From Cyanobacteria bacterium P01_E01_bin.6 (GTDB lineage: Bacteria > Cyanobacteriota > Cyanobacteriia > CAKZMO01), in the NCBI GenBank assembly GCA_039194035.1, contig JBCCWF010000001.1:3970-67969 (forward strand): a stretch of DNA of 64,000 nucleotides, given 5' to 3'. Shown here piece after piece: positions 5,038-39,916 of this stretch. A program made the translations under genes and the position numbers. How positions within the stretch are numbered: the stretch's first letter is position 1; each line of letters starts with the position of its first letter. Below the pieces are notes generated by a model. The model was not told where the DNA came from, did no database searches, and saw nothing but the letters and a program-made list of their open reading frames with translations.

Positions 5038-5061
5038 TTAAAATTTTCTCGACTTACGTGA

Positions 5062-5166: not shown

Positions 5167-5260
5167 AGCCTTACTTCGAACATTTTATGAGAGTAGAACA
5201 TCCTCATAAAAATGCATCAATTTGAATTAATGTGACAACCTGTATCCATCAATTTAGTGA

Positions 5261-5656: not shown

Positions 5657-5913
5657 TTTTTGTACTCCTAGTGATTGGGAAAATGTTCGTCTACAACGAG
5701 GTATCGCCATCGCTAATGAGATATTCAATAATAGAAGCCCTGCCAAAGAAATTACTTCGATAGGATCTTAAGGCTATCTCAATATTCATGGCGACTGTTT
5801 CAATATTCCCAAAAAATATTGCGTGTGTAGCAAAAGGTATTGAAACTGATTTGTGATTTTTCTTCTTCAGAAAAACACGTATATATGAGGTTGTCAAAGA
5901 ATTTGGGGAAATG

Positions 5914-7542
5914 TTAATTACCCCTCTCGGTATGGTTTAAATTTTCTTCAATTTCTATTAGTAAAGAATATGTGAGTGAATGGTCTGGGTTGATCCGAAT
6001 GGCTGTTTCAAGAGCTTCTAATGCATCGTTTGTTTGACCGAGCGCATATAGGGCATGGCCTTGTCCAGCTAGGATGTCGGGGTGATTTGGGGCTTTCGTA
6101 AGCGCTTCATTGTAGGCAATTAACGCATCTTGAAAATGCCCGAGGCTCGCCAATGCAGTGCCTCGGTTATACCAGCCGATATATGAATCCGGCTGACGGG
6201 CGATCGCCTCATCTGCCGAATCGATCGCTTCCTCATACCGTTGGAGATACCAGAGAATAACGCTGCGGTTTGCCCACGCATTTTCTTGTTGGGGAGCTAA
6301 GGCAACCACCTCATCATAGGCTTGGAGCGCAGGTTCATAATCGCCTTGACTTCGGTATGCAATGGCTTGGTTGAACCAGGCGGTCACCAGGCTTCGATCA
6401 ATCGTGAGTGCCTGATTGGATGCAGCGATCGCCTGCTCATACTGTTCAAGATGCCAATGAATGGCGGCCTGATGGGCCCAAGCGGGGGCATAAGTGGGCA
6501 AAAAGCCCACCGCTCGATTTGATAGTGCGAGGGCTGTGTCAAAATTGCCAAGATGAGCATGGCTGATGCTTTGTTGATCCCATACCTGACCGATACCCAG
6601 AGGCCCCCACGTGCCGTCTCCGGCGATCGCCAGTTCACATGCCTCTAGAGCTTCGCTGTGGCGTTCCAATCGATTGAGCACATCACAGCGAAAAACGTGA
6701 GCCTTGCTGGAGCTGGGATTGAGTCGAACGGCTTGCTCAAGGGCATGGAGGCTATCGTCATTGTGGTTTTGAGCAGCAAGCAAGAGTCCCTGTTCTAGCC
6801 ATCTGTCAAAACTGGTGTCGTCAGCGCTGAGGGTGAGGTCGTAGGCGGCGATCGCCCGGTCTGGATCACCAATCTGAGCAAGAGCAATCGCCCGATGATA
6901 GAGCGCCATCTCTGGAGACGTGTTGCCCCAATCTTGGTTGTACCCGAGAGCCGCATCGCAGTTGATCAGGGCTTCACGAGGTTTTCCTAGGTAGTTGAGT
7001 GCTTCACAGCGGCGAGTGCGGAAACCGGAGCGGTCTGGATCGAGATGGATAACGTGGTTGTAACTGGCGATCGCCCCTTCCCAATCCTCCATTCCCGCGA
7101 GGGCGAGTCCTCGATATTCCCAAGCATCATCGGGACTATTTGTTCCCCAATGGCGATCGTGGGCAAGGGCATCGTCACAGGATGCAAGTGCCTCATCATA
7201 CTGTTCTAGAGTGACCTGAATTTGGCACTGGGCTAGGTAACTGGGCGAATCGTCAGCGCCTTCGTTGATGGCGGTATAAATGGCAACGAGTGCTTCCGCA
7301 GGTTCGTCGAGCTGTTGGAGGAGTGCGGTGTAGGTTAGCCAGAGATCGTCATCGTTGGGTTCTATCCCGAGGGCTTGTTCGCAGGCGATGCGGGCGGTTT
7401 CTAGAGCATTGGCGCCGATGAGGATATGACAGCGATCGCGCCAATAGTCCTCGTCATCAATGCCGTAGAGTCTAGCCGGAGTCTGGGCGAGGGCAGGGGT
7501 GGTGAGGAGGAGTGTCAGTGGGAGTGCGATGAGAAGGCGCAT
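5914..7542 (-). CDS. TPR-repeat protein with N-terminal signal peptide
   Basis: Signal peptide MRLLIALPLTLLLTTPALAQ. Many 34-residue repeats with the W-LG-Y / A-Y--A-P signature (e.g. AIAAYDLTLSADDTSFDRWLEQG). Confidence 0.7.
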   Translation of the reverse strand: MRLLIALPLTLLLTTPALAQTPARLYGIDDEDYWRDRCHILIGANALETARIACEQALGIEPNDDDLWLTYTALLQQLDEPAEALVAIYTAINEGADDSPSYLAQCQIQVTLEQYDEALASCDDALAHDRHWGTNSPDDAWEYRGLALAGMEDWEGAIASYNHVIHLDPDRSGFRTRRCEALNYLGKPREALINCDAALGYNQDWGNTSPEMALYHRAIALAQIGDPDRAIAAYDLTLSADDTSFDRWLEQGLLLAAQNHNDDSLHALEQAVRLNPSSSKAHVFRCDVLNRLERHSEALEACELAIAGDGTWGPLGIGQVWDQQSISHAHLGNFDTALALSNRAVGFLPTYAPAWAHQAAIHWHLEQYEQAIAASNQALTIDRSLVTAWFNQAIAYRSQGDYEPALQAYDEVVALAPQQENAWANRSVILWYLQRYEEAIDSADEAIARQPDSYIGWYNRGTALASLGHFQDALIAYNEALTKAPNHPDILAGQGHALYALGQTNDALEALETAIRINPDHSLTYSLLIEIEENLNHTERGN

Positions 7543-7621
7543 GGGAAGGGGGGGATGGGTGAGGGAATGGATGGGCGAGGGAATGGAGGAGTGAGGGAGT
7601 GGGGGAGTAGGGAGGTCGTCG

Positions 7622-10196
7622 CTAGTGGATGAATTGAGGTGGGATTTCGGTGGGGGTTAAGCGATCGGGTTCAGTGGGTCGGGGGGTATGGATGGAGTCG
7701 GGGGTGTTGGTGGCTGCTCCGTCTTGACGAGGGGTGGGCGATCGCCTATTGAGGTCAACCCGTTCTTGAGCACTTGCTTCTGTCACGGGGGGCAGTGGGG
7801 GAATTGTTTCGAGGGTAACGGATCGACTGATGCTTTCTCCCGCTTGATTGGTGACGCGCAGCGTCAGGGTTTCAATGCCGCCTTGGGGACTGAGTGGGTA
7901 GGCGATCGCCCCTTGTCGGGAGACGGTTCCAGGAGCAGGCAATAACTCTACGGTGACTTCTGGATCTCCGTCCACGCTCCACGTGATGGGAATGACTGGA
8001 GCTGGATCCTCCAGGTTTAGGGGAATGACGTACTTGGGTTGAGACGATTCACCATTCACAGCAAAGGATGTAATGGCAAAGGACAGACTGGGACGCTCGA
8101 TTTTGATGGGGTCGGTGATGTGGGTGTCTAGGGCGTCTTCAGTTCTTTCGATGTCAGCACCATCTGGTCGGGTGAAGAGCTGGAGTTCAAAGGTGTAGTG
8201 ACCCACGTTGCGGGCAGGAGTCGGCACGTTCCAACAGGAGAGCGTCCCATCTAGTTGGCAATAGTCTTCTAGTTCTGCTGGAACCCCTCGACTAAAGTCA
8301 AACTCGATGGGGGAAATGAGCGGCGATTGATCCGCGTCTCGGCCAATTAGAACAAGTCGATGCAGTGCTTCGGGATGGGCGATCGCCCAATTTAGGCGAA
8401 TGGGGGGAGTGAGAGTTGACGGAGTCTGAAGGGTGCGGTTGATAGAGTCCGATGACTCGGGGGCGATCGCCGCCACGTATCGAGCCTGAGTCGGCTCGAA
8501 GGTTGTGATGTCTGGCAGGGGAGTAGGGAGGATGGTGATGGGAGCCGTTTGACGGTTGAGCGTCTGGGTGTTCTGCTGATGGCGACGCCCTCGTCTGGTG
8601 TTGACTTCTAGATCAAAGCGATACAGTCCTGCTCGATAGGCATCGGTGGGAACGTTGTGACAAACCAACTGCGCACCCGAAATACAAAAGGGTTTGAGCT
8701 GGGCAGGGATGCCGTCTGAAAAATCAAAGGTGACAGACGGGCTCACGATGGCATCATCCGTGGGCGATCGCCCTACCAGTTCAACAATTTGTACTTGCTT
8801 GGGCTGACTAATATGCCAGTTCAACCGAATGGGCATTCCGTCCATTTCTTGATAGGACACCTCTGCAGAGGAAAATTCCAGAATTTCCGCTGGAGCGGGA
8901 GGGCGCAGCAAGAGCCAGAGCGGAAATCCAACGAGCGTCAGCATCCCAGCTCCTAATAACAGCAATAACATCAGATGCCACCAAGGTCTTGGCTGCCAAA
9001 CCACTCCTCCTTGCAAGGCGTCTTGAGTCAGAGGCAGTGCTTGCTCATCATCCAGTTCCACCATGAAGTTGAACACTTGACCGCCGCCTCGGAAGGGGCG
9101 TTTTCGAGCTGGATAGGGCTGGATGCCCAAGCTCATCGTGATGGATTCGTTGGGCAATACCTGAATAACTGGAGATACAGCGGTGTCTGGTGTTGGAGTT
9201 GCGTAGGATTCGATACGAGCCACCTTTTCTCCCTGGGTGACTTCAGCCCAATGGAACCGACAGATATCCGTGGCTTCATCCAAAACCCTGGCTCGGAGAC
9301 GGACTCGTCGAGCTGTATTTCCCCCATTGTTGAGCCGAATCCAATACAGTCCAGCTTGATGCTTGACAGTGCTTACCAGCGTCTTTAGCTCTGTGGTCAA
9401 CAGATAATGGGGGGCAACTTCCAGATACAGAATGTCTAACAGCACCAGGTCAGGATTGTTGGCTGAATGGAGGCGCAAGGTCGGTGCATGTTGTCCAGCA
9501 AGGGCATGAATCGGCAGGGTGATGGTCAGGCGGATTTCTCCCGTGCTGCGAGGATTTAACTCCAAGCTATCCGCGTCACGCACAAGGCCAACGGTCTCAA
9601 ATCCTTCTGGATAGCGAATGTGATACCAGTTGGGCGCTAAGTCAGGGCAGGTTAGTCGGAATCGATCGACGCGATCCGAGCGGTTGTAGACCATCAGTGC
9701 GACTTCAACTGACCCGCCCGGTTGCATCAGGAGAGGCTGATTTGATCGGGTAATCGGCTGCACTGTAAAGGTTGGGTCATTGACCTCGACAGTGGTTTGG
9801 TATTTCGGAATGACCTGGATGCGCTGGTCGTATTGAATGGGGGTGTCTTCGGGATAGTGATCAGGGGCATCGACGACGACTTGATAGGGATATACCTCTG
9901 GTGGTATTTGCAGAGGCACCTGAAGTTGAAACAGCACCTCACTACTTTGTCCAGCAATCAATGCCAATCGCTGAAACGGATTGCTGCACCACTGCATCAC
10001 TATCTGCGAGACATCGCTCAAATACACATCTATCAGAGCATTGTGTGCCCCTCGATTGTGAACGATGACGCTGAGTTCAACGGTGGAACCAGCCTCGATG
10101 GCGTGTTGTCCTGATGGACTGACAATGGTGGCAATCGGACAGGCGGCGATCGCCGCTGAGGCATCGCTTGATTTATCGCCATAGAAATCATCCATG
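7622..10196 (-). CDS. large membrane protein with multiple Ig-like (CARDB/DUF11-like) ~100-aa repeats and one central TM segment
   Basis: Start placed at MDDFYGDK. The upstream 100 codons of the ORF overlap the preceding gene and a G-rich tract. Repeats of the N-S-[DA]----F-L ... P--WY type; three C-terminal LNW-I--P / ITWSV repeats. TM segment WWHLMLLLLLGAGMLTLVGFPLWLLL. Confidence 0.5.
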
Positions 10197-10349
10197 GGAC
10201 GAGTGTTGGGGGGATGGGGGGAGATGGTCATGGTGGTGATGGAGTGGGGTGGAGTGGTGGAGAGAGTGAAGGGGTGAAGGGTTGGCGGGGTAAAGAGGTA
10301 GAAGTGGAAGGAGGAGGAGTAAATGGGGAGTAAATGAGGGATAGGGGAT

Positions 10350-12509
10350 TTAGGGGGCGTTGGAAAGGTCGCAGAGGGCGTCGTGGGTGCGATCGCGGCG
10401 ACGGACGCTGACTTGGGTGTTCTCGTTCCCGGAGGCGATGAGAAGGTCGTCATCCCAGATTTTGATATCAACGGTGTTGAATGGTGTTCGGACACGCTCG
10501 ACTTGAATACCGTCTCGATATTGGATGGAGCGTGTTCCGGCGGATGAGAGGGGCCACAACATCACGCGGCCATCTGCTCCAGCACTGGCGAGGTAGCACC
10601 CGTAGGGACTCAGAGCAATATCCCGTAACGGTTCACCACCATGTCCGTCATTCCATTCGTCGAGCACTTCGCACGGACGATTCGAAATGAGGCATGGTTT
10701 CAAATCCCATAGGGTGATGTAGCCTTGATTATCTGCTGTGGCCAATAAGTAGGGCTGCAAAAACACAGCCTCAACGCTGGTAATATACTGTGCTTGGCTT
10801 CCGGGGCGCGGGTAGGTGATGTCTAGCACGGTGTCTTGTTGCCAGTCCCAAATCGAAAGACGGTTGTAGCGCCCACCCGCAGCAAGGGTCGATTTTTCGT
10901 TTCCGACCATGGCAATGCCATAGACCGCAAAGTCAAACTGATGGAGCCGCACGGGAAGTTGAGCGATGTCATTGCGATCGCCCTGGGGATAGTCGAGCGC
11001 CCATTGCAGAACGGCACCGCTGCCATGACCACTGAGCAAGTGTCGAGAATCGTGAGTGAATTCCAAATCCATCACTCGATCATCTCGATCGAGGGCGAAG
11101 GTGGTCGTATGCCCCTGCCCGGTAAAAGAGCTGATTTGGATTTCGCCGTTTTCGAGTCCTGCGGCTAGCCAGTCGTTGTTGACTGGGCGATAGCGCACCA
11201 CTCGAATGGCTTTACCGGCGTCGGGCGATCGCCCCAGTTGTTGATTGATGATGGGGTTGAAAAATCCATTCACCCGCCATTGAATGGAGGTTTGGTCGCT
11301 AGACCCACTGATGACGTCATCTGTCGTACCGCTTAACTCAACGGAATTCACCGCTGCGCGATGACCAAAATAGGGATTCCCTGGATTCAGCCAGGAGAAC
11401 CACCAAATCAGATACAACACAATAAAACCCCCTAGCCCCTGGAGCCAAAGGGGAATGCGAGGCGGAATCCGAAGCGTCACCAATTGGGTGTCATCTTGGA
11501 CATCCACACGGGTATCGCTGACGGTGCCTTTCATGACAAACTGCATCTTTTTTGCGAACCCGACCCAGTGCCGCGAAATCAGCGCCCCAAGCTGAATCTC
11601 TGCTTGTTCGCCGGGATGTAAAAGCGTTTGATCGGGCACCACTTGGAGAGGGAGATGCACGCGATCATCTCCTTCGACGTCGAGAGACGCCTTCAGGGGA
11701 ATATTGCTCTCATTGTCAAAGGTCGCATCCCAGTAGACGCCATGACGTCCCCATTGATAATGGCGATCGCGCACCGGGAGCGTGTGCTCTTCGGGTGTGC
11801 AAGCAAAGTGCACCTCACCTTGAGCCAACACATCCAAATTGCCCAGAGCTTCTGACGTGGTTCCCTCAGGCTGGATGGCTCGGAGCGTAAACGGATAAGC
11901 TCCACAGATGGCATTGACATGGTCAGGCAGTCTGACTATCAGTAAGGTTTCAACGGTGCTATCAGCGGGAATATCGATCGCCTGCTCAACACCGCCAACG
12001 ATCCATTCCGGTGGAATTCCGTCTATCCAGAGCGTCGTTTCACTCTTTTCATGGGACGAGTTTTCCAGAAAAACCGGAATCTGAACCTGGTCAAGCGGAT
12101 TTGCCTGAAACTGGCGCACGGGCATCTTGATGCCAATGGGTAGCTCGCCACCCGGATCAACCTGTAGACGGAGAATGCGCCTCTCTTCCCCAAGTTCTAA
12201 GGATGTGACACGTACCGTGAGATTCACAAGCCCAGCAAAGCCTGGAATCGGAGATCCCAAAATGGAGACGTGAAATTCGGTGCGATCGCCCGGTGGTTTT
12301 TTGCTGGCGATTTCTGGCGTGAGGTCGTACCAAGCGTTGGCGCTGTCTTCATTTCCAGGTGCAAAGAGATCCAATTGAAACGTCGCAAAACGATCGCTCT
12401 GATTCACCACCACCACTACGAACTGGGTCGGTTCACTGCCAGGGGTGTAGTGGAGGGTTCGGGGTGGAACCGCAATTCCAATGCGTGTATCGGTTGTTGT
12501 AAGAGTCAT
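10350..12509 (-). CDS. membrane protein: N-terminal Ig-like repeats, TM helix, C-terminal WD40 beta-propeller
   Basis: Three N-terminal ~110-aa repeats (NQSDRFATFQLDLFAPG...WYDL; NSSHEKSET...; NESNIP...). TM segment IPLWLQGLGGFIVLYLIWWFSWL. WD40-like repeats (GHRAAVNSVELS...SGSSDQTSIQW; LLSGHGSGAVLQWAL; WDW, LWDL motifs). Confidence 0.6.
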   Translation of the reverse strand: MTLTTTDTRIGIAVPPRTLHYTPGSEPTQFVVVVVNQSDRFATFQLDLFAPGNEDSANAWYDLTPEIASKKPPGDRTEFHVSILGSPIPGFAGLVNLTVRVTSLELGEERRILRLQVDPGGELPIGIKMPVRQFQANPLDQVQIPVFLENSSHEKSETTLWIDGIPPEWIVGGVEQAIDIPADSTVETLLIVRLPDHVNAICGAYPFTLRAIQPEGTTSEALGNLDVLAQGEVHFACTPEEHTLPVRDRHYQWGRHGVYWDATFDNESNIPLKASLDVEGDDRVHLPLQVVPDQTLLHPGEQAEIQLGALISRHWVGFAKKMQFVMKGTVSDTRVDVQDDTQLVTLRIPPRIPLWLQGLGGFIVLYLIWWFSWLNPGNPYFGHRAAVNSVELSGTTDDVISGSSDQTSIQWRVNGFFNPIINQQLGRSPDAGKAIRVVRYRPVNNDWLAAGLENGEIQISSFTGQGHTTTFALDRDDRVMDLEFTHDSRHLLSGHGSGAVLQWALDYPQGDRNDIAQLPVRLHQFDFAVYGIAMVGNEKSTLAAGGRYNRLSIWDWQQDTVLDITYPRPGSQAQYITSVEAVFLQPYLLATADNQGYITLWDLKPCLISNRPCEVLDEWNDGHGGEPLRDIALSPYGCYLASAGADGRVMLWPLSSAGTRSIQYRDGIQVERVRTPFNTVDIKIWDDDLLIASGNENTQVSVRRRDRTHDALCDLSNAP

Positions 12510-12565
12510 CGCGTTTTAGTTCCTGGTTCAATTCCCTGAGTCAATCGCCTGGGTTATTCCCAGCC

Positions 12566-14485
12566 TCAATCGCCTGCAATCAGTCTTCTTAAGCGGTTTT
12601 GTACCCAGTTCAGATAATTGTGTTGACCCTCTGATTCGGGCATTTGAAGAGTGGTCAAATTGTTTGATAACTCTTGGCTGGATGCTTGGCGCTGCTTCAG
12701 CGTATTGAGGATCCGATCTTCCAACTCTGGATACTCGGTCAGCACCTGACGTAATCCATTGCGATTCAACACAAATAGGGCTATTGGTGTGACCGCTCTG
12801 ACACTGGCAACCCTCGGCACATCTAGGAACAACGAAAACTCTCCCACCACTTCACCCGCTTGAATTGATGTCAAATAACGGGGCGAATCTTCATCCGTTA
12901 AGACCTCTGCTGTGCCATCTAACAAAAAATAGAGTTCATTCCCCTGATCACCCGCACGACAAATAGTCGTACCTGCTGGCACATGCTGCTCTTCCCCAAA
13001 TTCCAATAGGCGATATCGTTCTTCCAACGTAAAGTTTTGGAAGTAAGAAACGATTTGGAGGCGCTCCGCTAGGTTTGGAGCCTGTGCAAGGGCGATCGCA
13101 CTGCGAATTGACTGAGATTGGTGAATTAATTTTTGCCAGGCCGTGACATTCCCCAACTGCGTCAATTGAGCATGCCGGAGAGATTGTTGGGCATGTTCTT
13201 GCTGCAACTGTTGGAGCTGTTGTTGGAGTCCTTGCTGACGGCTATAGACAACCTTTGCCATATCTTGAAAGATGCGGGCTAAGCGCCCCAGTTCATCTTG
13301 TCGTCGGAGGACTGGAGTCAGCAAGTCTGGGTCATGCTTTTCTTCTTCAATTAGACATGCAGCTCGTGTTAATCGGATGATGGGCTGAGTAATCCAGCGT
13401 GCAACAAAAATGCCCATTAAGCTTGCACCAACGGCAACCAACAGTCCCACTTGAATGGTGGAACGTAAACTCGCAAGGGTGATTTCCTTGAAATCAGTGG
13501 ATGGCACCATCACCACGACAATCCAATCGATTCCCGCAGGATCAAAGATCGTGTCAACGCCGATGTATTGCTCAATGCCGGATATCTTTAGAACAAATTC
13601 TTCAGATGTCGTCAGGGTGGAAAACTGTCCCATTTCATCCAAGAGTTGAGTCGTAATATCTCGAATCAATGGGTTGTTGCTCTCGGTCGCGATAATGCGG
13701 TGCTTTTCTTGATCAATTACATCAATTACCTTAAAAAGCTCCGCATGCATGGACGTTGCAATGAGTTCTCCTGAGCGCTCCATCACAAAGGCATGACCCG
13801 CAGGGCTAATTTCCAGTTCTTCAAGGAAATGCCCCAGACTTGCCAGAGAAAGGTCAAGTCCAAAAACGCCCTGCACCTCTCCATCTGCTGTATATATCGG
13901 TTGGGCAGCAGTGACACCCAGAGTTGTTTCTGTGGCAAAGGCATAGACCGGACTCCAAGCAAACTCACCAGATTTGATTGCTTGCTCATACCAGACGCGA
14001 CTCCGTGGATCGTAGATCTGCGACTGAAGCAATTCGGTCGGTTCTCGCTGCTCATTTAGACGATAGGTTAGGCGATTTGGTACCGTGTCTTGATTGCGGA
14101 GCTGAATCGTCCAGCTTCCATCTCCGGCCTCGCTGAATCCCAAGTAATTCCCTTTGGCATTGCCAAAGAAAATGCGTTTGGGCAGATCGGGTTGCTGAAC
14201 CAAATTCCAGAGTGTATCTGCCAAATCCTCATGAGACGAGTAATCGACATCAGATGCACTGCCCTCTAAGGTGGCCAGCATGGTTTGATACAACACCTTG
14301 GAATCGGCGAGATGGTTTTTCACATGGCGCTCAATTGACCCAGTGGCTTTACGACTAATTTCCTCAGCGAGTTCATGCACCACTTCTTGTTCGCTGAGAT
14401 AGGAGAGCCAACTACCCAACCCGACGGCGGCAAAGATGGGCATGACGATGAGAATAGGGAGGGTGACACGGATGGGGAGGCGCAT
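12566..14485 (-). CDS. signal-transduction protein: N-terminal TM + periplasmic Cache-like sensor, HAMP domain, Gln-rich coiled coil, C-terminal cyclic-nucleotide-binding (cNMP) domain; no output enzyme or DNA-binding domain
   Basis: N-terminal TM. Second TM followed by a HAMP-like segment (VARWITQPIIRLTRAACLIEEE). QQLQQLQQE coiled coil. C-terminal cNMP-binding signature (GDQGNELYFLLDGTAEVL ... AGEVVGEFSLF ... RVASVRAVTP). Confidence 0.6.
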   Translation of the reverse strand: MRLPIRVTLPILIVMPIFAAVGLGSWLSYLSEQEVVHELAEEISRKATGSIERHVKNHLADSKVLYQTMLATLEGSASDVDYSSHEDLADTLWNLVQQPDLPKRIFFGNAKGNYLGFSEAGDGSWTIQLRNQDTVPNRLTYRLNEQREPTELLQSQIYDPRSRVWYEQAIKSGEFAWSPVYAFATETTLGVTAAQPIYTADGEVQGVFGLDLSLASLGHFLEELEISPAGHAFVMERSGELIATSMHAELFKVIDVIDQEKHRIIATESNNPLIRDITTQLLDEMGQFSTLTTSEEFVLKISGIEQYIGVDTIFDPAGIDWIVVVMVPSTDFKEITLASLRSTIQVGLLVAVGASLMGIFVARWITQPIIRLTRAACLIEEEKHDPDLLTPVLRRQDELGRLARIFQDMAKVVYSRQQGLQQQLQQLQQEHAQQSLRHAQLTQLGNVTAWQKLIHQSQSIRSAIALAQAPNLAERLQIVSYFQNFTLEERYRLLEFGEEQHVPAGTTICRAGDQGNELYFLLDGTAEVLTDEDSPRYLTSIQAGEVVGEFSLFLDVPRVASVRAVTPIALFVLNRNGLRQVLTEYPELEDRILNTLKQRQASSQELSNNLTTLQMPESEGQHNYLNWVQNRLRRLIAGD

Positions 14486-14560
14486 GGTGGTGGGTAGGGA
14501 AGGAGTAGGGGAGTAGGGGAAGGGGAGTAGGAGTGTGGGAATAAAGGTTTTAGAGGGCTT

Positions 14561-14631
14561 GGGTCGGGGCGCAGGGCATGTGCCTTTGGTCGGATGTTGA
14601 AGATACGGAAATCTTGATGAAAATGAAGGGC
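14561..14631 (-). promoter_or_regulatory. conserved ~70-nt intergenic element, copy 1 (between the 543-aa gene stop and the cNMP-sensor gene start)
   Basis: ~80% identical to 16181-16250. Shared blocks GGGGCGCA..CATG.GCC, TCGG.T.T.GAA.ATACG.GAAT.TTGATGAAAA.GAAGGGC. Contains an imperfect palindrome GGCGCAGGGCATGTGCC. Confidence 0.45.
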
Positions 14632-14646
14632 AAAGAGTTACAGGAG

Positions 14647-16146
14647 TTAGGGTGTTGGGGGTGGAGGGGAGGATGGTGACGGGGCCTGAAGTTGGGTGAG
14701 TCGATGACGTTGCCAGGTGGTGTAGAGGGCATTGATGCCTAGTTCTTCGGCGGCACGAAGATCACCCCGTGACAAAGGTTCACCTAGATAACCTTGGAGC
14801 GCGGAGGTAACGTTGCCTAAAATGACGCTGAATCCTCGTCCTACCAAGATTTTGTGGAGTTGCTGGGCAAAGGTCGGTAGGGTTGAAAAATGGAAGGGTT
14901 GGCATCGGAGGGGATGGAGAGGAGGCAGGTCTTCCCAAGGGGTCAGCGTAATATCGAGGGGTTGGAGAAATGGCTCATAGTGGATGCTGATGGTGGCTAA
15001 TTTTTCGCCAATGAGCACCGAAATTTCGTCGAGTTCTTGAGTCAGTTCACTGTGCATGCGATCCATGTCTGAGTTGGCAGGAGGGGCGTTGGACGAAAAA
15101 GCTTGTTGATTGGGCGATCGCCCCAGTCGAGCATCAGTGACATCCTGCACCGAACTGAGTTGCTTGATGGCATCACTGAGTCGCTGATGCACCATGAGCA
15201 ATTCACCGAGATCATCCTCTTGCATCGGGTGTTCGACGATAATGCTGCCTCCAGATTGAATGTAGTGCTGGAACGCGGCAGCACTATGTTGAATCATCTG
15301 TTGAAAGGAGATGTGGCTGATGAACAGAACCGCACAATCCAATAGTTCGGCTTGCACTGTCGGAGTCATTTCTGTGAAGATGAGTGGCGACAGTGGTTGA
15401 AGTTTGGGATAGAGTCCAGGGAGCGATCGCAACAATGACTCAATGCCCTCCACGAGTGGGGACTCATGACGAATGGCCACGCGAATCGAGGCCGTTGAGC
15501 GGGGACAAACCTGTGGGCGATAGCGCAAATCCAAACGACCTGGCGTCGGATTTAGAACATCTCGCACTGGCTCAAGGGCAACAAAATCTGCTTGTAGCTG
15601 AATTCGGCACAGCTCAATTTCATTGGCTTGAGGTGGACAGTCTTTCTCGTCAATCCGATAGGTCTCGCGCATGATTTGGTTGCGACCATCCCCTTCTAGG
15701 GTTTCGGGGTCGACATAGCGCAACACGATGTAAACAACCTGGCTACCAATTTCACCATTGGATAAAACGCGGCCAGCCTCGTTGCGGGGTTGTCCCCGGT
15801 GGTCGGGTTTGCTTTCGACCTGACTTCCTGGAACGGATGCAATGCGAAAGTCTACAGACTCTGGTACCACGATGGGGTTGCCATTCACATCAATGGCCAA
15901 ACCGGGCTGAATCTGGAGCCAGCGCTGATCGCGAAACTGACTCGCGACCGTAGACGGTGGTGGAATAATGCAAACGCCTAGCCCATCAACGATGCCAGGT
16001 TGGTTGACCGATTGAAAATGCAGGTTTTGGCGCTGTCGGTGATAGGCATGAGCCAATTGCCATCGCTCTGCATTAATCAGCAAGCCATCGGATACTCGCA
16101 ACCGTTCGAAGGGATCAAGTTTTGGAGGGGGGAGAGGATTGGGCAT
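14647..16146 (-). CDS. hypothetical protein in the baseplate-gene string (possible additional baseplate/tail component)
   Basis: Start placed at MPNPLPPPKLDPFERL, downstream of the overlap with the preceding gene. No confident family match. Co-directional and tightly spaced with the GpI-like gene. Confidence 0.45.
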   Translation of the reverse strand: MPNPLPPPKLDPFERLRVSDGLLINAERWQLAHAYHRQRQNLHFQSVNQPGIVDGLGVCIIPPPSTVASQFRDQRWLQIQPGLAIDVNGNPIVVPESVDFRIASVPGSQVESKPDHRGQPRNEAGRVLSNGEIGSQVVYIVLRYVDPETLEGDGRNQIMRETYRIDEKDCPPQANEIELCRIQLQADFVALEPVRDVLNPTPGRLDLRYRPQVCPRSTASIRVAIRHESPLVEGIESLLRSLPGLYPKLQPLSPLIFTEMTPTVQAELLDCAVLFISHISFQQMIQHSAAAFQHYIQSGGSIIVEHPMQEDDLGELLMVHQRLSDAIKQLSSVQDVTDARLGRSPNQQAFSSNAPPANSDMDRMHSELTQELDEISVLIGEKLATISIHYEPFLQPLDITLTPWEDLPPLHPLRCQPFHFSTLPTFAQQLHKILVGRGFSVILGNVTSALQGYLGEPLSRGDLRAAEELGINALYTTWQRHRLTQLQAPSPSSPPPPTP

Positions 16147-16180
16147 GGGGTTTGGGGGAGTGAAGGATTTAGATGACTGG

Positions 16181-16250
16181 GGGAGGGGCGCATCGCATGC
16201 GCCCTTAATCGGGTATGGAAAATACGAGAATGTTGATGAAAACGAAGGGC
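16181..16250 (-). promoter_or_regulatory. conserved ~70-nt intergenic element, copy 2 (between the GpI-like gene stop and the 543-aa gene start)
   Basis: Paralogous to 14561-14631. Contains the perfect 8-bp-stem hairpin GGGCGCAT-CGC-ATGCGCCC. Confidence 0.45.
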
Positions 16251-16258
16251 GATCGCCG

Positions 16259-17338
16259 TTAAGTTGGCCGAGGCTCAATATGTAGGTCGTATGTGCAGTG
16301 GGCTGGTTTTTCTTGGGTGATAATGCGGTGAATTAAAGGGGGATGAATGGTGTCGGTCGTGTCGGGGCGGAGGGTGACGATGAAATGATAGGGACGGCCT
16401 CTGCCGAGGGTGGCGTTGGGGCCAAGATGAACATCCCCAAGGGTGAAGGCTTGGTTGGATGATTCTTGAATGGAAATGGCGCGATCGCCCTCTGACAACT
16501 GGTCATCGAGGGGAAGTCCGGTGGCATAGTGCAAAAACAACCTCAGTCCCCGACGAGTTCCGCGCCATTGGTAGATTTCCATGGCATGACGCATCAGTCG
16601 TCGCTGCTGATTGGGTAACAGCGGCAGCTCATCCATCGGCCAAGCGACCCAATGAGCCAAGAACGGCAGGAGGGCTTCTGGGGCAGTGAGAGGATCGAGG
16701 TAGCGTGTCAGCGCCTCGGTTGTTTCGATAATGGGGCGGAGTGCTTGCTCAAACACCTGCAAATAGCGATGCATGAAATCGACTTCTCGGTATACCGCGG
16801 GTAGCAGTTCCGAGAGTCTTGTGCGGGGACGCACAAACAGATTCAGACCCATGTATTCGAGCCGCCGCTGTTGCCTAAGTTCTGTGTGATTGTCTGTGTT
16901 ATTTGCGGTGTTATGGGCGGTTAGCTGTGGATCGTTCAGCGGTACCTGGTGTTGATAGGCAACCACCACATCCATGCGGTAATCGAGGGTGAGGACTTGC
17001 CGAGGGCTGAGGGCATGATCATCTTCAAAAAAGGAGTCTGGAACCTGGAACCGCAGGACTCCTTCCATTCGCTTGTATGGAGCAATGTCGTGGGCTTCCA
17101 GCCGAATGTGATACCAGTGAGACGGGAAGTTTCCTTCCAGCCGGACTTCGATAGAAATTGGCTCAGCGCTGGTATTCTCAAACAGCATGAGCAGTTCGCT
17201 TGGTTCCCCAGGAAACAGCACCAGATTTAGGCCGCCGCGCCCCAATTCGTCCTCACTCGTCGTCGGGGCGATCGCCTCCGAGGTTTGCATGGGGGCAAAC
17301 CGGAGATTGAGCGCAGGAGCCGGACGAGTGTGAACCAT
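16259..17338 (-). CDS. phage tail protein, P2 GpI-like (TIGR02242-type) with an N-terminal Ig-like domain
   Basis: C-terminal region (LPFLAHWVAWPMDELPLLPNQQRRLMRHAMEIYQWRGTRRGLRLFL) matches the conserved tail-protein-I family signature (W-G--D--W-----R-L-----LY--RGT--GL). The N-terminus carries the same N-S...WYHI Ig-like motif as the neighbouring large proteins. Confidence 0.55.
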   Translation of the reverse strand: MVHTRPAPALNLRFAPMQTSEAIAPTTSEDELGRGGLNLVLFPGEPSELLMLFENTSAEPISIEVRLEGNFPSHWYHIRLEAHDIAPYKRMEGVLRFQVPDSFFEDDHALSPRQVLTLDYRMDVVVAYQHQVPLNDPQLTAHNTANNTDNHTELRQQRRLEYMGLNLFVRPRTRLSELLPAVYREVDFMHRYLQVFEQALRPIIETTEALTRYLDPLTAPEALLPFLAHWVAWPMDELPLLPNQQRRLMRHAMEIYQWRGTRRGLRLFLHYATGLPLDDQLSEGDRAISIQESSNQAFTLGDVHLGPNATLGRGRPYHFIVTLRPDTTDTIHPPLIHRIITQEKPAHCTYDLHIEPRPT

Positions 17339-17389
17339 AAAATCCTTAATCTAAAATCCTTCAATCACAAGAGCGCTGAACCATCGCCA

Positions 17390-19570
17390 TTACATCCTCA
17401 CAAATCGGATAAAATGGCCTGACCGCAAGTCTCGGTCATACCAAGAACAAATGAGGCCATTGGCTCCGGGGTAGACGGAGCCAGGAGAAATTTGCCGAAC
17501 CCATTGTCCCTGGTGATGACGTAGCTCAAACAACTGCACGGTGCCCAGATACTGAACGCCTGGAGCCTGTTGAATCAGAGCAATCACATCAGATGGGTAA
17601 ACCGGACGCCCAAACGACCAACCCGTGCCGTCTTCCCCGCCAGTAATGGGATTCAAAAAGCGGTAGAGGGTCGCCAGCAACGATTGCTGCACCGCATCCT
17701 GTGCCTGGGGAGATTGGTAGGCTGGGGCGAGACCAATTTCGGCTCGCACCGATACGCCGACATAGGTTGGCTGCTCCAACACCACCTGGGTTCCCAGGAG
17801 CTTTCGTTCATCGAGATAGGTTGTCAGGTGAGTTCGGAGGCTGGGGGTGAGGATGAACTGATCCGGTGCAATCCCCTGTCCTTGGGTGACGCCTGTGGTG
17901 GGAACCTGGGGAACCACCAAAACCTTGACAGTTCCAGCTTCCATAGCGGACTGGGCCGACAGGCATCGTGCCTGGGCGATCGCCCCTTCGCCGCCTCGCA
18001 TCACCAAGGCCTCAAAATCTTCGGGAGTGACGGCGCGATCGCGGCTCCGCAATAGCTTTGGCACCCGCATGACCGCTTGTTCGAGGGATTCTGCATCGAC
18101 TCCGTAGCGAGTTGGGTCATGGTTCACCACCTCAGCCACGTAGGGAATCGCGGTTTTCAGAACCCGCACGGTTCCCGCCTGAACATTGCCCCGCACACCA
18201 CCACCTGTCCGATAGCTCACCATCCGCAGCACCGATCCTCGGGGCGGAATCGCGCCATATTGATGTTCGGTTGATACGGCGGGTGCGGTTGCCGTTTGGC
18301 CATAGTCTTGAATTTGGAGACGCACCTGAGTCGCATTCGGCCCGTGAGATGGTTCTCGAATACGGGGGCCAAACTGCACCGTGCCTGCTTGTGAATCGAG
18401 TACGTAATGATGACTTTCTGGAGTGGAATCGGCAAAATCAGCAACTTCATGCCATTGCTGGGGCAATCCGTCAGGTGGCTGTACTTCTAGATACTCGCCA
18501 TCTCGGCGGGGCAACACAGGATGATTCAATAGCTGAAACGTCTGATTAGACGTACCATCGCTGATGCCTAACAATTCATCGCGAATCAGGGTGGCTTGGC
18601 TGGCGCGAACCGAGCCGCCAATGGCTCTCACGGAGAGTCCGACAATGCGAGGCGATCGGCTGTAGGCAGGTTGAGCAGGTGTTGACGGAATACACACACA
18701 CCGAATCCATCGCCCCCGATAGGTTGAAAACGCAGACACAGGCCAATGCTGCGGTAGATGGAGAACCACATCCCCTCCCTGGAGAGGATCCAGGCCTTCT
18801 TCGGTGATCGTGCTAAAGCTAAATCCTTGAGTTCCGTCATCCTCTTCTGTTCGCAGAATGGATGTCCAGGCTGTGCCATCCCATGCTTCCCATCGACGGG
18901 GAGGTGCACTTGGATTAATGCCAGTGGCCGTGGCAGCTTCTCCTTTGACCGTGAGAGAAAGAACGTTGCCATCTAATACTTCATCCGGTTCAAAGACCAA
19001 ATAAAACGCGTTGCCCGATGCGGGTTGATCATCAAAGAGGAGTTGTTCTGGCCCATCCCATCCCCCATCCGGATCTTGAATCCAGCGATTGGTGAGGCGA
19101 TCTCGCAGGGTTTGGGGCACCTCTTCAGTAAGGGAAGAGGTAAGAAAATGCTGGAGATGGGGCTTCCCGACCCGCAATGGACGATCGGTTGTAAATACCA
19201 CGGCCTCTTCTGTTTCCGTGCGCATGGTTGCGACCTCAATTCCGGCTGGAATCATGTAGGGTTCGGGCAGTACCGTATTGAGATAGAAGGTAAGATCGGC
19301 TTGGGCCGGAAGCGGAGGCTGTAGACGAATGCCTAAGAGTTCCAGAAATGAGACATATTGACGGCGTGGTACCTGGTTAAACCGTAGGAGCATTTGCTCC
19401 GTCATCCATCCAAACAGTTCAATCAGCGTCATGCCTGGATCGCTGGGATTGAAATTTGTCCACTCTGGGCAATAGCGAGGAATCCGTAACCGAGATTCGA
19501 CCATCAAGTCATCGAGCTTGCGGTCATCCAGATCCGATTTAGGCAGATTGGGCAAAAAATTGAATTCCAT
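17390..19570 (-). CDS. baseplate J-like protein (gp6-like; TIGR02243 putative baseplate assembly protein)
   Basis: The N-terminus (DLDDRKLDDLMVESRLRIPRYCPEWTNFNPSDPGMTLIELFGWMTEQMLLRFNQVPRRQYVSFLELLGIRLQPP) is a near-textbook match to the TIGR02243/baseplate_J N-terminal signature. Length 726 aa. Confidence 0.75.
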   Translation of the reverse strand: MEFNFLPNLPKSDLDDRKLDDLMVESRLRIPRYCPEWTNFNPSDPGMTLIELFGWMTEQMLLRFNQVPRRQYVSFLELLGIRLQPPLPAQADLTFYLNTVLPEPYMIPAGIEVATMRTETEEAVVFTTDRPLRVGKPHLQHFLTSSLTEEVPQTLRDRLTNRWIQDPDGGWDGPEQLLFDDQPASGNAFYLVFEPDEVLDGNVLSLTVKGEAATATGINPSAPPRRWEAWDGTAWTSILRTEEDDGTQGFSFSTITEEGLDPLQGGDVVLHLPQHWPVSAFSTYRGRWIRCVCIPSTPAQPAYSRSPRIVGLSVRAIGGSVRASQATLIRDELLGISDGTSNQTFQLLNHPVLPRRDGEYLEVQPPDGLPQQWHEVADFADSTPESHHYVLDSQAGTVQFGPRIREPSHGPNATQVRLQIQDYGQTATAPAVSTEHQYGAIPPRGSVLRMVSYRTGGGVRGNVQAGTVRVLKTAIPYVAEVVNHDPTRYGVDAESLEQAVMRVPKLLRSRDRAVTPEDFEALVMRGGEGAIAQARCLSAQSAMEAGTVKVLVVPQVPTTGVTQGQGIAPDQFILTPSLRTHLTTYLDERKLLGTQVVLEQPTYVGVSVRAEIGLAPAYQSPQAQDAVQQSLLATLYRFLNPITGGEDGTGWSFGRPVYPSDVIALIQQAPGVQYLGTVQLFELRHHQGQWVRQISPGSVYPGANGLICSWYDRDLRSGHFIRFVRM

Positions 19571-19658
19571 AGCGCTTCTCAGAGTATGGGGCCGAGAGGT
19601 GAAGCCAGATCATGAGGTGAGTAAGATGCCCGATAGCGCGGCTTATGACACTGCTGCA

Positions 19659-20195
19659 TCACGCCATTACCTCTAGGCTTGTGAATTCGGGTGCGTCAGA
19701 TAACTGATCCGTTGCCAGCTCGGGCGATCGCCCGAGCTGTTTGTCCACGTCTCCTTCTGGTCTGAGATAGAAGGGATAGACCAAACTACGAGCGTTGTAT
19801 TGATCGATCAAGCGATATTGAATGACTAAGTCAATGCGGCCTCGAACCGGATCTGGATCAGCCCGTACATCTTCCAACACAATGCGTGGCTCCCATCGCA
19901 CAAGGGCATCTTCTACCGCGATGCAAAGCTGCACGAGGGTGTCGGTGTTCATCGGCGCAAAGGCAAAATCTGTGAGGACTGACCCAAATTCGGGTTCCCC
20001 CACGCGTTCGCCTACATCGGTGCGAAGAATTAGCCAAATGGATTCCTCGACACTGCGTTCGGCTGAGCTGAACTGGAGACTTCCTTGGGTGCTAATCCGT
20101 AGCGGAAACGCCCACCCAGTTCCCAGCAACATCGATGTGTTTATTGGGGCGATCGCCCCATCCTGTCCATTGGCCATACAGACTCTCCATTCCAA
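19659..20195 (-). CDS. GPW/gp25 family baseplate wedge protein
   Basis: GWAFPL..., VEESIWLILRTDVGERVGEPEFGSVL and VRWEPRI match the PF04965 gp25 signature (I-QSI--IL-T--GER---P-FG ... EPRI). True start may be the internal MANGQDG. Confidence 0.75.
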   Translation of the reverse strand: MEWRVCMANGQDGAIAPINTSMLLGTGWAFPLRISTQGSLQFSSAERSVEESIWLILRTDVGERVGEPEFGSVLTDFAFAPMNTDTLVQLCIAVEDALVRWEPRIVLEDVRADPDPVRGRIDLVIQYRLIDQYNARSLVYPFYLRPEGDVDKQLGRSPELATDQLSDAPEFTSLEVMA

Positions 20196-20259
20196 CGATT
20201 GCCGTCACGATATCGCAGGGATGCGGAGGTCAGTATTCGCCAAAAGTCGAATAACGAAA

Positions 20260-39637: not shown

Positions 39638-39916
39638 GATTCATGGATCGGTCATGATCCGATGATGAGCAAAAAGGGCGATCGCCCTTTTTGCTCATCA
39701 TCTTAATTTCTTCTTTTACTGTCGTCACTCCCTTCGTCCTCCCCACCCCTTCACTCAGTATCGTGAGAGCGTATTTTGCAATCGTGATAAACAATCTGCA
39801 AAAGGCTCATGTCCTCGGTAGGATAGTAAGCATAGTTACAGAATTTTAGATGTTGTATTGACGCTGCGGGATGATCGTCAGTGAGCTGTCTAAGTTGTCT
39901 GTTTTGAATCGATTGT

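Follow-up and report, generated by a model that had tools for sequence, protein, structure and literature searches.

Filamentous cyanobacteria carry short tandemly repeated repetitive (STRR) heptamers, for example CCCCAGT, for which roles in transcript stability or translational coupling have been proposed. The classical STRRs are crisp heptamers from heterocyst-forming strains, and some form hairpins. No function has yet been established for STRR repeats (PMC2670836). Quadruplex-forming G-rich heptamer repeats were described by Rehm et al. (2015, PMC4692102) as GGGGA(C/T)T in Nostoc PCC 7120 and as GGGAATC in Xanthomonas. These repeats lie preferentially between co-directional ORFs, no more than 50 bp upstream of an ORF and with the G-rich strand antisense, and their length differs among relatives; in Nostoc PCC 7120 the same class occurs genome-wide and is unrelated to gene function (PMC4692102). 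In vitro the repeats fold into quadruplexes, four units being the preferred number, and the complementary strands into i-motifs; no regulatory role was found for the class (PMC4692102). Leaders that work without a Shine-Dalgarno (SD) motif are a further related system. Non-SD genes show weaker structure around the start in 9/9 cyanobacteria. Ribosome-binding-site signals are weak in 71% of cyanobacterial genomes (PMC6028130), and in a reconstituted system translation from C-rich leaders that lack an SD can be fast (PMC3310771).

The DNA analyzed here (the window) is a stretch of 64,000 nt from Cyanobacteria bacterium P01_E01_bin.6, in which a string of minus-strand genes makes up a baseplate-like (phage-tail-like) cluster of cyanobacterial type that includes accessory genes:
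16259..20195, minus strand: head of the gene string, baseplate genes
19659-20195, minus strand: gp25-like gene
17390-19570, minus strand: Baseplate_J-like gene
16259-17338, minus strand: Tail_P2_I-like gene
14647..16146, minus strand: 499-aa protein, downstream of tract T4
12566..14485, minus strand: dCache-HAMP-cNMP-binding sensor protein, downstream of tract T3
10350..12509, minus strand: WD40 beta-propeller protein, preceded by a purine-rich leader that contains AGGA
7622..10231, minus strand: 857/869-aa protein (the "Ig-repeat" gene of the sequence-only reading), downstream of tract T2
5914..7542, minus strand: TPR-repeat protein with an N-terminal signal peptide, downstream of tract T1

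Neither the 857/869-aa protein, named 'COG1470 family protein' in public sources, nor the 499-aa protein had a Pfam match, and no intrinsic terminators were found between the cluster genes. The gp25-like, Baseplate_J-like and Tail_P2_I-like genes have no C-rich tract in this genome. Cluster neighbours of the four tract-bearing genes do carry AGGA/AAGG motifs, and the WD40 gene, with its purine-rich leader, is an internal control inside the same cluster. The tracts and the segments that border them are:
7543..7621, minus strand: T1, the entire 79-nt spacer from the 857-aa gene stop (TAG, 7624-7622) to ATG 7542 of the TPR gene
10196..10231, minus strand: probably coding, the first 12 codons (MTISPHPPNTRP) of the 857-aa protein, which they would lengthen to 869 aa
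10232..10349, minus strand: T2, the 118-nt spacer from the WD40 stop (TAA, 10352-10350) to the probable ATG 10231 of the 857-aa gene
14486..14560, minus strand: T3, the 75-nt C-rich portion of a 161-nt spacer ahead of ATG 14485 of the Cache-HAMP-cNMP sensor
14561..14646, minus strand: copy 1 of a spacer module of roughly 90 nt that is duplicated, between the 499-aa gene stop and T3
16100..16146, minus strand: coding, from ATG 16146 on, for the Pro-rich N-terminal residues MPNPLPPPKLDPFERL of the 499-aa protein
16147..16180, minus strand: T4, the 34-nt C-rich end of a 112-nt spacer ahead of ATG 16146 of the 499-aa gene
16181..16258, minus strand: copy 2 of the duplicated spacer module, between the Tail_P2_I gene stop and T4

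The G-run tracts are real and far above chance expectation. The four intervals singled out by the sequence-only reading are 7543-7621 (79 nt; G 49, C 3, nine G3+ runs), 10197-10349 (153 nt; G 84, C 3, nine runs), 14486-14560 (75 nt; G 40, C 1, seven runs) and 16100-16180 (81 nt; G 37, C 6, five runs), counted on the plus strand. The longest C-free plus-strand runs of the window measured 74 nt (14484-14557), 71 nt (10287-10357) and 56 nt (10230-10285), followed by runs of 40 and 35 nt that both lie inside 7541-7616. When the window was shuffled 200 times, the longest C-free run per shuffle averaged 38.8 nt and reached at most 63. The observation is thus borne out in part, with the corrections given below. 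The genes in question all lie on the minus strand, so the G-rich plus strand is the template strand, as had been said. Across the whole window, stretches of 60 nt with no more than 2 C and at least 27 G occur only at 7539-7619, 10194-10371, 14470-14569, 14614-14679 and 16108-16188, and none fits the mirror criterion. The Pro-rich C-terminus of the 499-aa protein (PSPSSPPPPTP) is the coding source of a plus-strand G-rich stretch at 14650-14690. Each tract reaches directly to a start codon, all of them in spacers of the one gene string, and leaders with C>=26 and G<=5 precede only these four genes among the 53 ORFs of the window.

The claim that the intervals lie directly 5' of start codons holds for the tracts themselves, which abut the starts, and needs trimming at two places. 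In the fourth interval, 47 of the 81 nt (16100-16146) are coding, leaving only 16147-16180 as leader, and the N-terminus they encode is kept in the relative L003 as MSQPLPPPDLNPFDRL. In the second, the most likely start of the 857-aa gene is ATG 10231 and not ATG 10195, as suggested by an in-frame ATG-AC(C/T) located exactly 12 codons 5' of the second ATG in the window and in L002, L003 and L006. The gene caller for L001 picked the downstream ATG for this gene, so the 12-codon extension (10196-10231) is only probable coding sequence; with the start at ATG 10231, the non-coding tract would be 10232-10349.

The tracts are degenerate tandem repeats with a period of 8 to 16, of the cyanobacterial STRR or heptamer-repeat kind. 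Tandem Repeats Finder (TRF) returned periods of 8, 16, 11 and 14 over all tracts: 16/8 for T1, 8, 10 and 11 for T2, and 8/14 for T3, where the plus-strand unit is GGAGTAGG. The common mRNA-strand unit approximates (T/C)ACTCCCC, which reads GGGGAGT on the opposite strand; the heptamer ACTCCCC is present in 4/4 tracts, which together hold five of its ten minus-strand copies in the window. Crisp arrays of similar units are found at the corresponding position in other cyanobacteria (ACTCCCC, CCCCAGT/CCCCAAT, CCCATTA, CCTTTCC and CCATCCAC), with genuine CCCCAGT/CCCCAAT arrays at equivalent cluster junctions in the Nostoc/Aliinostoc loci L039 and L042. Replication slippage would have made and resized the spacers, to judge from the degenerate tandem copies and the length differences among relatives.

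The tracts thus belong to an already described kind of cyanobacterial simple repeat (Rehm et al. 2015). Like the repeats of that study (PMC4692102), they consist of short tandem units rich in G that lie in non-coding DNA, with a preference for spacers between co-directional ORFs, and at most 50 bp ahead of an ORF whose template strand is the G-rich one; their length and sequence vary at one junction among close relatives, and they follow no functional gene class. Unlike those repeats, the units here are degenerate, with a period of about 8/16 and a GGGGAGT core instead of GGGGAYT, T2-T4 lack four evenly spaced G-runs, and the host is a non-heterocystous, Leptolyngbyaceae-like cyanobacterium. 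With STRRs they share tandem repetition, a unit of about 7 bp and a location in the intergenic spacers of operons, but the tracts of the window are decayed, longer-period versions that are incapable of forming hairpins.

What appears as G-runs on the template strand is, in the mRNA of this co-directional gene string, a set of spacers rich in C/U and starved of G. On the mRNA strand, T1 has the composition C49 T17 A10 G3, T3 contains a single G, and both T2 and T3 have 0 G across their final 50 nt. The 60 nt 5' of ATGs 14485 (cNMP), 7542 (TPR) and 10195 (857-aa ORF) contain 0-2 G, and those 5' of ATG 16146 (499-aa ORF) contain nine. Having almost no G, tract RNA is free of AUG, GUG, UUG, SD motifs and folding: no SD-like motif was found 5' of the four genes in the window, and predicted folds reached only -2.1 kcal/mol over 109 nt for the T1 leader plus 30 nt of CDS and -1.0 kcal/mol over 105 nt for the T3 region. 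A signal peptide or transmembrane helix begins right at the ATG, and the start codons are conserved.

We propose that the tracts are slippage-born leaders, free of structure and of start codons, that permit SD-independent initiation, and that their role lies at the level of RNA and translation and not in a DNA quadruplex switch; we hold this to be somewhat better than an even proposition. Each tract would act as a structure-free, decoy-free runway ending at the true start codon, and the four genes would be translated without SD pairing. The 30S subunit, possibly via protein S1, may load on the single-stranded pyrimidine-rich RNA; alternatively, ribosomes might reach the first AUG by sliding on after they have finished the upstream gene. 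A role of S1 in cyanobacterial initiation has been questioned (PMC5397173). As C-rich leaders did poorly in E. coli cells (PMC3310771), the tracts may set low, not efficient, translation. The quadruplex potential of the template strand would be a by-product of composition. Like described non-SD initiation regions (Nakagawa et al. 2017, PMC5397173; Barendt et al. 2012, PMC3310771), the leaders have no SD, very weak folding at the start and C directly 5' of the AUG, and a similar bias continues past the start, with the TPR and cNMP genes also C-rich in their first codons. Typical non-SD leaders, in contrast, are A/U-rich and short, whereas these have 0-2 G in 60 nt, span 34-118 nt and are built from repeats.

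Related genomes were compared at the four genes (five genomes, 18 orthologous leaders, G counted per 50 nt). All 18 leaders were G-poor, at a mean of 3.8 G and a range of 0-7, and an SD motif was found in 0/18, whereas WD40 leaders with a confirmed ATG (n=4) had 12-17 G and three of the four carried SD-like motifs. Fourfold-degenerate sites were 31-38% identical between the window and L002-L004, and silent sites are therefore saturated. What is conserved in the leaders is G-poverty, pyrimidine richness and the absence of an SD, that is, composition rather than sequence; no conserved sequence motif beyond composition was found among the relatives. Because the same leader type is kept at the same junctions, the claim of a feature shared by the gene string has substance: an unusual leader type is common to the four genes, and the G-quadruplex/i-motif device that had been proposed for it is unsupported.

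Orientation was surveyed in 1.5 Mb of related cyanobacterial loci, counting stringent tracts that abut the start of a long ORF. Such tracts were C-rich on the sense strand 16-24 times and reversed twice. Among about 370 mapped cluster-gene leaders, 25 had G<=4 and C>=20; the mirror composition occurred in none save two with doubtful starts. A reversed tract would place GGAG/GAGG decoys, extra start codons and RNA quadruplexes ahead of the gene, which we propose as the reason that this orientation is rare at start codons.

The sequence-only reading held that template-strand G-quadruplexes or coding-strand i-motifs modulate transcription of the four genes at the DNA level. Canonically (four G3+ runs, loops <=7), the tracts are quadruplex-competent only at 7543-7581 in T1, on the plus strand; the others need 8-12 nt loops, those of T3 being 8 nt or more, or two-tetrad stacks. 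G4Hunter-type scores of 1.4-1.6 do cluster in this region, three-tetrad quadruplexes were predicted in T1 and T3, and the related Nostoc and Xanthomonas repeats form quadruplexes and i-motifs in vitro (PMC4692102). However, T2 yielded two-tetrad quadruplexes only and the non-coding part of T4 (16147-16180) none, and predicted stability was not above that of same-composition shuffles (T1, -24.8 vs -30.9 +/- 13.6; T2, -14.5 vs -20.7; T3, -7.1 vs -11.5). Motifs lay opposite only 1/18 (loops <=7) or 4/18 (loops <=12) of the orthologous leaders although every one is G-poor, the L002 cNMP leader having no C3+ run in its last 50 nt, and the strand bias at start codons has a simple RNA-level explanation. 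Similar tracts, whose commonness upstream of unrelated genes had been named as evidence against a device, are indeed common in that position in Nostoc PCC 7120, where the investigators of the repeat class saw no regulatory role (PMC4692102), and in related loci they also occur at other junctions and beside non-cluster genes. Control at the DNA level appears improbable. Translation of the tracts as Pro/Ser/Thr-rich N-terminal extensions, raised as the alternative, we find scarcely credible. C-rich coding sequence does exist at 10196-10231 (12 codons) and at 16100-16146, where the 499-aa gene has its first 15 codons, and the 857-aa frame stays open through T2 to GTG 10495, but that extension would overlap the WD40 gene by 146 nt, its upstream peptide is broken by stops in L002, L003 and L006 and is not conserved, and G-free tracts contain no start codons. 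Extensions of the TPR protein and the cNMP sensor were ruled out: the former has an in-frame stop upstream and a signal peptide from ATG 7542, and the start of the latter is conserved in L002-L004 (MRLP/MRLS/MRFP).

The tracts might instead be tolerated slippage repeats with no positive role, harmless with C on the sense strand and regenerated at the same spacers. The tract sequences are unalignable among relatives, and spacer lengths vary widely (79 nt in the window vs 50-52, 154 vs 84-235 and 161 vs 57-136). More distant loci have tracts at different junctions, before Baseplate_J, P2_I and WD40 genes, and only 24/82 loci have at least one, so that a possible function is not tied to particular genes; the absence of a gene-function link or regulatory role in Rehm et al. 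(PMC4692102) and the unknown function of STRRs (PMC2670836) point the same way. Against this, leaders stayed G-poor and SD-less in 18/18 cases despite saturated silent sites while the adjacent WD40 gene keeps an SD-type leader, and some, such as that of the L002 cNMP gene, are G-poor yet not repetitive, which regeneration of repeats alone explains poorly. Moreover, since no other ribosome-binding signal precedes the four genes, each tract effectively serves as the initiation region of its gene. We regard mere tolerance as possible, at perhaps a minority chance. There is only a slight chance that the RNA is a landing pad or attenuator for something that acts in trans and tunes operon polarity, for instance a small RNA rich in G, an RNA-binding protein that recognises pyrimidine tracts, or termination by a Rho-like or Mfd-linked pathway. 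The RNA here, pyrimidine-rich, C-rich, G-poor and unstructured over 70 nt or more, has the textbook Rho-utilisation (rut) signature (PMC12642595), known terminators leave most cyanobacterial transcript ends unexplained (PMC12642595), and the genes are not separated by an intrinsic terminator. But cyanobacteria lack Rho and non-canonical 3' ends in Synechococcus show no strong nucleotide bias (PMC12642595); moreover, the tracts precede conserved cluster genes, not operon ends, the relatives share composition only, an Rfam search of the tracts gave no match, and no candidate factor is known. A caveat to SD-independent initiation as the selected role is that continual slippage renewing the repeats could sustain G-poverty instead of selection.

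The duplicated spacer module was absent from the 87 loci in which it was sought. Copy 2 (16181-16258) contains an 8-bp hairpin, GGGCGCAU/AUGCGCCC, and copy 1 (14561-14646) gave no significant fold.

The statement that such tracts are not seen upstream of other genes in the window is correct for start-adjacent tracts; a weaker one lies elsewhere:
39694..39757, plus strand: weaker tract with matching polarity, many C and few G being present on the sense strand of the plus-strand gene downstream

A terminator-like hairpin precedes this tract, and the start codon of that gene is about 175 nt further on.

All genes from 20195 down to 5261 are encoded on the minus strand, and the gene content of 5914-20195 identifies the string as a baseplate-like (phage-tail-like) cluster with accessory genes. 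The genes are given here together with the non-coding extents of the four G-run tracts, T1 to T4:

19659-20195, minus strand, gp25-like gene
17390-19570, minus strand, Baseplate_J-like gene
16259-17338, minus strand, Tail_P2_I-like gene
16147-16180, tract T4
14647-16146, minus strand, 499-aa protein without a Pfam match
14486-14560, tract T3
12566-14485, minus strand, dCache-HAMP-cNMP sensor
10350-12509, minus strand, WD40 propeller
10232-10349, tract T2
7622-10195 or 10231, minus strand, 857-aa protein (public records: 'COG1470 family')
7543-7621, tract T1
5914-7542, minus strand, TPR protein with a signal peptide
5093-5135, hairpin with a 20-bp stem, flanked on each side by T-runs, closing the gene string

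The string gp25/Baseplate_J/Tail_P2_I, 499-aa, cNMP, WD40, COG1470-family 857-aa and TPR is syntenic from Leptolyngbyaceae to Nostocales, as seen in L002-L004, L085 and most of L005-L084 (loci of other sequences with a related cluster). No sheath or tube gene lies within the 64-kb window, and the string would seem to be a conserved baseplate-like module carrying accessory genes of a signalling type. The window itself has a cyanobacterial look, with 48% G+C and frequent GCGATCGC. The hairpin at 5093-5135 is probably a bidirectional terminator ending the cluster; an Rfam match there to an Actinobacillus sRNA (E = 0.79) was set aside as chance. A promoter/terminator scan found no intrinsic terminators between the cluster genes and, in the four spacers, neither a good sigma-70 promoter nor an intrinsic terminator, with promoter-like matches fewer than shuffles would predict.

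As the sequence-only reading held, the tracts lie directly 5' of start codons with G on the template side: each follows a minus-strand gene and abuts the start of the next, and the plus strand of all four intervals is strongly G-rich and almost C-free. The standout C-free runs (74, 71, 56, 40 and 35 nt) are all in these spacers, whereas the longest run in shuffles averaged 39 nt and never exceeded 63 nt. A stringent criterion (C<=2 and G>=27 within 60 nt) picks out the tract spacers and nothing else in the window, and its mirror image picks out nothing. Both T1 and T2 occupy their entire stop-to-start spacers. On the mRNA strand T1 is C49 T17 A10 G3, the 154-nt spacer containing T2 is C85 T39 A27 G3, and T3 holds one G. 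The claim that no other gene in the window is so preceded stands for leaders: one with C>=26 and G<=5 occurs at these four genes and at no other of 53 non-overlapping ORFs, and no such tract is present in the glycosyltransferase operon at 50-63 kb, a long co-directional string of genes on the same strand. The 64 kb do, however, hold one weaker tract besides the four in the cluster:

39694-39757, plus strand, weaker 64-nt tract, C-rich and G-poor on the sense strand, about 175 nt before the start codon of a plus-strand gene

Its polarity relative to the downstream gene is that of the four tracts. A terminator-like hairpin, GATGATGAGCAAAAAGGGCGATCGCCCTTTTTGCTCATCATC, directly precedes it (region 39656-39757).

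The originally proposed boundaries had to be redrawn. The 499-aa gene starts at ATG 16146, and therefore 16100-16146 is coding; it encodes MPNPLPPPKLDPFERL, which is kept in a relative. In the case of the 857-aa gene, the start is probably ATG 10231, 12 codons before its second ATG and kept in four genomes, and 10196-10231 is probably coding as well. Beyond these two stretches, translation of the tracts as Pro/Ser/Thr-rich N-terminal extensions, also suggested by the sequence-only reading, is highly improbable. RNA free of G can contain no AUG, GUG, UUG, UAG, UGA or GGAGG, and the G-free tracts hold no start codon; the TPR ORF has a stop upstream of it, the start of the cNMP gene is conserved, and an extended 857-aa ORF is not, being interrupted by stops in L002, L003 and L006 (three of the relatives compared junction by junction). 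As spacers, the tracts are untranslated and derived from repeats; they stand in the sense orientation, and each ends at a true start codon.

Pro-rich, low-complexity coding ends lie beside the tracts (14650-14690, 16100-16146, 10196-10231 and 7641-7709). The 499-aa protein begins MPNPLPPP... and ends ...PSPSSPPPPTP at its stop, and the 857-aa protein begins MTISPHPPNTRP... and has a Pro-rich C-terminus. C-rich composition thus crosses the start and stop codons next to the tracts, which suggests that gene ends may lengthen or shorten into repeats. Directly before the AUG, T2 (10232-10240) and T3 (14486-14494) carry CACCACC on the minus strand, which resembles a eukaryotic Kozak context; T1 and T4 have CCC/CCCC there, and a CCC-ATG ending is also common among tracts of other loci. 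The tracts mislead gene callers, with ORFs extended through a tract and spurious small ORFs on the G-rich strand: public calls place ORFs of 39 and 50 aa there (L001 2568-2687, minus, and L003 9850-10002, minus), and in the window the 857-aa frame is open through T2 up to GTG 10495.

No GGAG/GAGG/AGGA-type motif was found 4-20 nt upstream of the start in any of the four leaders, whereas a Shine-Dalgarno motif does precede the WD40, P2_I and 131-aa genes of the cluster. The tracts are also without structure. Predicted folds from -30 to +30 were 0.0 kcal/mol for the 499-aa gene, -1.0 for the cNMP gene and -2.1 for the TPR gene, against -5 to -12 for neighbouring genes; the fold at ATG 10195 of the 857-aa gene was -11.1 kcal/mol. 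Leaders taken with the first 30 nt of coding sequence (about 105 nt) gave only -1.0 and -2.1 kcal/mol. Folding this weak would suit an unstructured, non-Shine-Dalgarno initiation region.

Relatives keep this composition at the same junctions. Proteins of the window are 75-81% identical to those of L002-L004, while fourfold-degenerate sites are only 31-38% identical, so neutral sequence has been randomised. Nevertheless, G is scarce in every one of the 18 leaders that precede the 499-aa, cNMP, 857-aa and TPR genes across five genomes, with 0-7 in the last 50 nt (mean 3.8 versus about 12 expected), and none contains a Shine-Dalgarno-like motif. WD40 leaders with a confirmed ATG (n=4) have 12-17 G, and three of them carry AGGA/GAGG motifs. 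G-starved leaders persist gene-specifically through saturated divergence, which is the one mildly new result here, and this persistence argues for a constraint at the RNA level. L001, a Logan contig, is 100% identical to window 5139-12900 and therefore gives no polymorphism information; a metagenome scan with the WD40 protein for closer relatives and for variation in tract length returned only two unrelated matches, at 24% identity.

In the window and 1.5 Mb of cyanobacterial loci, orientation was counted for tracts that adjoin a long ORF at its start. A first test with 40-nt windows (G<=2, C>=16) gave 64 versus 28, and stricter thresholds were then used because these loose ones let in normal leaders and coding sequence rich in Pro. 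Among start-abutting, stringent, non-coding tracts the sense strand was C-rich 16-24 times, depending on threshold, and G-rich only twice. Selection would act against the inverse orientation, since the gene would then be preceded by Shine-Dalgarno decoys, additional start codons and stable RNA quadruplexes.

The sequence-only reading had taken the tracts to be G-quadruplex-competent and possibly a shared regulatory device. Competence in the canonical sense is borne out for T1 alone: motifs with four G3+ runs and loops of 1-7 nt are present at just two places, 7543-7581 (T1) and 14555-14576 (next to T3); T2 and T3 qualify only with loops of 8-12 nt or two-tetrad stacks, and T4 has no quadruplex motif. 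Three of the four tracts thus lack a canonical intramolecular G-quadruplex motif. With the quadruplex option of ViennaRNA, tract energies (model values) were no better than those of same-composition shuffles, so the arrangement of G-runs is not tuned for quadruplexes. Quadruplex potential is not conserved opposite the 18 leaders, where motifs occur at one (loops <=7) or four (loops <=12); the L002 cNMP leader, for example, is a C/U tract with one G and no three-C run in its last 50 nt. It is the avoidance of G and the richness in pyrimidines of the mRNA strand that persist, not the G-run architecture of the template, and with energies no better than shuffles a DNA-quadruplex device is improbable. 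H-DNA or triplex formation was set aside, as the plus strand is only 79-84% purine with scattered thymines and the tracts are not mirror repeats. A sponge of the CsrA type, formed by a GGA-rich antisense transcript, was dropped for want of promoter evidence; cyanobacteria are not known to use CsrA.

Short tandem repeats are a known phenomenon in filamentous cyanobacteria, and the tracts belong to it. The G-rich reading of such repeats was described for Nostoc PCC 7120 by Rehm et al. 2015; there they lie between aligned ORFs, vary among relatives and form quadruplexes in vitro (PMC4692102). For the related short tandemly repeated repetitive (STRR) heptamers, an effect on transcript stability or translational coupling has been proposed (PMC2670836). 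The window's tracts likewise have a short (6-9 nt) G-rich unit in tandem, lie between co-directional ORFs, no more than 50 bp ahead of one and with G on its antisense strand, and vary in length and sequence at equal junctions, where the spacers of L002, L003, L004 and L006 have other lengths and are unalignable while keeping their composition. TRF (a tandem-repeat scan) reported degenerate arrays of period 8, 16, 11 and 14 in T1-T3 (2-7 copies, 67-100% match); T4 was too short for scoring, and copies in the tracts are degenerate. The heptamer ACTCCCC (GGGGAGT on the other strand) is present in all four. The Rehm consensus GGGGA(C/T)T with its four-unit preference is not found in the tracts, which differ in their irregularly spaced core unit (GGGGAGT / GGAGTAGG / GAGGGAGT, period about 8) and lesser regularity. 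Because position, composition and variability fit, we regard them as a known repeat class, in decayed form, in a new host and a new gene cluster; taken alone, they are one more example of it.

The eight cluster proteins were mapped onto 80 orthologous loci (genome contigs) and four from other collections, consisting mostly of cluster sequence. At least one cluster gene had a G-poor, C-rich leader in 24 of 82 loci, with distant start codons set by tblastn extrapolation and uncertain for 857-aa homologues. Many of these leaders are crisp tandem heptamers or octamers, and ACTCCC(N) arrays in other loci are all on the sense strand:

Nostoc and Aliinostoc loci, CCCCAGT/CCCCAAT arrays
Anabaena and Nodularia loci, ACTCAGC arrays
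Planktothrix loci, CCCATTA/CCCATTG arrays
Oculatellaceae loci, CCTTTCC and CCATCCAC arrays
other loci, further array units CTCCCCAC and CCCCCTCT
L026, C-rich arrays at 60-140, 1731-1889, 3268-3476, 5682-5833 and 8699-8785

L026 (Oculatellaceae cyanobacterium Prado106) is a distant relative, with 40% identity in the 857-aa protein. Its arrays (CCTTTCC, CCATCCAC, ACTCCCC) are longer and crisper than the window's and precede at least four cluster genes; as a natural system for function tests, L026 would be preferable to the window.

We lean toward an RNA-level, Shine-Dalgarno-independent reading of the tracts, to which leader composition and its persistence point. The four genes would be initiated without Shine-Dalgarno pairing, either by 30S subunits loading onto single-stranded, pyrimidine-rich RNA or by ribosomes freed from the upstream gene travelling to the first AUG. 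Cyanobacterial genes without a Shine-Dalgarno sequence have less structure around the start and a C signal just upstream (PMC5397173), and ribosome-binding signals are weak in most cyanobacterial genomes (PMC6028130). C-rich non-Shine-Dalgarno leaders can be efficient in a reconstituted system but are weak inside E. coli (PMC3310771), and because of the latter the tracts may, by analogy, set low rather than high output. That these repeats, variable as they are, are merely tolerated products of slippage is possible but rather doubtful; the gene-specific persistence of their composition is the evidence for constraint. An RNA landing pad or attenuator draws on the resemblance of the tracts to a Rho-utilisation site, whose composition and folding (at least about 70 nt of unstructured RNA, rich in C and poor in G) they share, yet cyanobacteria have no Rho (PMC12642595), and we consider it quite unlikely.

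A bolder form of the RNA-level reading, which we put forward as speculation, is that G-starved pyrimidine leaders are selected for gene-specific initiation at the 'first AUG after a G-free runway' or for post-termination re-initiation, kept for the accessory genes through full primary-sequence turnover, with STRR-type repeats as the raw material to build and resize runways. If this were true, the long-unexplained heptamer repeats of cyanobacteria would gain a function, as would part of the initiation mechanism of most cyanobacterial genes. The locus is a compact natural test, with four genes whose only initiation region is a G-free repeat tract, a neighbouring gene with a normal Shine-Dalgarno leader, and orthologues that keep composition while sequence turns over.

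A spacer module of about 90 nt is duplicated in the cluster, with one copy before T3 and one before T4:

14545-14632 and 16165-16249, minus strand, module copies, about 75-80% identity

Each copy extends from the preceding gene's stop codon into T3 or T4, and an 8-bp GC hairpin distinguishes copy 2 from copy 1, which lacks it. The module was not found in 87 fetched loci. A structured RNA was rejected, since no fold was significant (z = 0.72 and -1.0) and the module is missing from all other loci; a permissive Rfam scan of 5000-21000 likewise assigned neither the tracts nor the module to an RNA family. The module may represent an internal promoter, or a leader, of which a copy passed between the 499-aa gene and the cNMP gene. 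TRF also reported tandem repeats elsewhere in the window: a perfect 14-nt x5 repeat at 26284-26353, a 57-nt x2 repeat at 37381-37495, (CGA)15 inside an ORF at 47592-47636 and a perfect 20-nt x2 repeat at 54298-54337.
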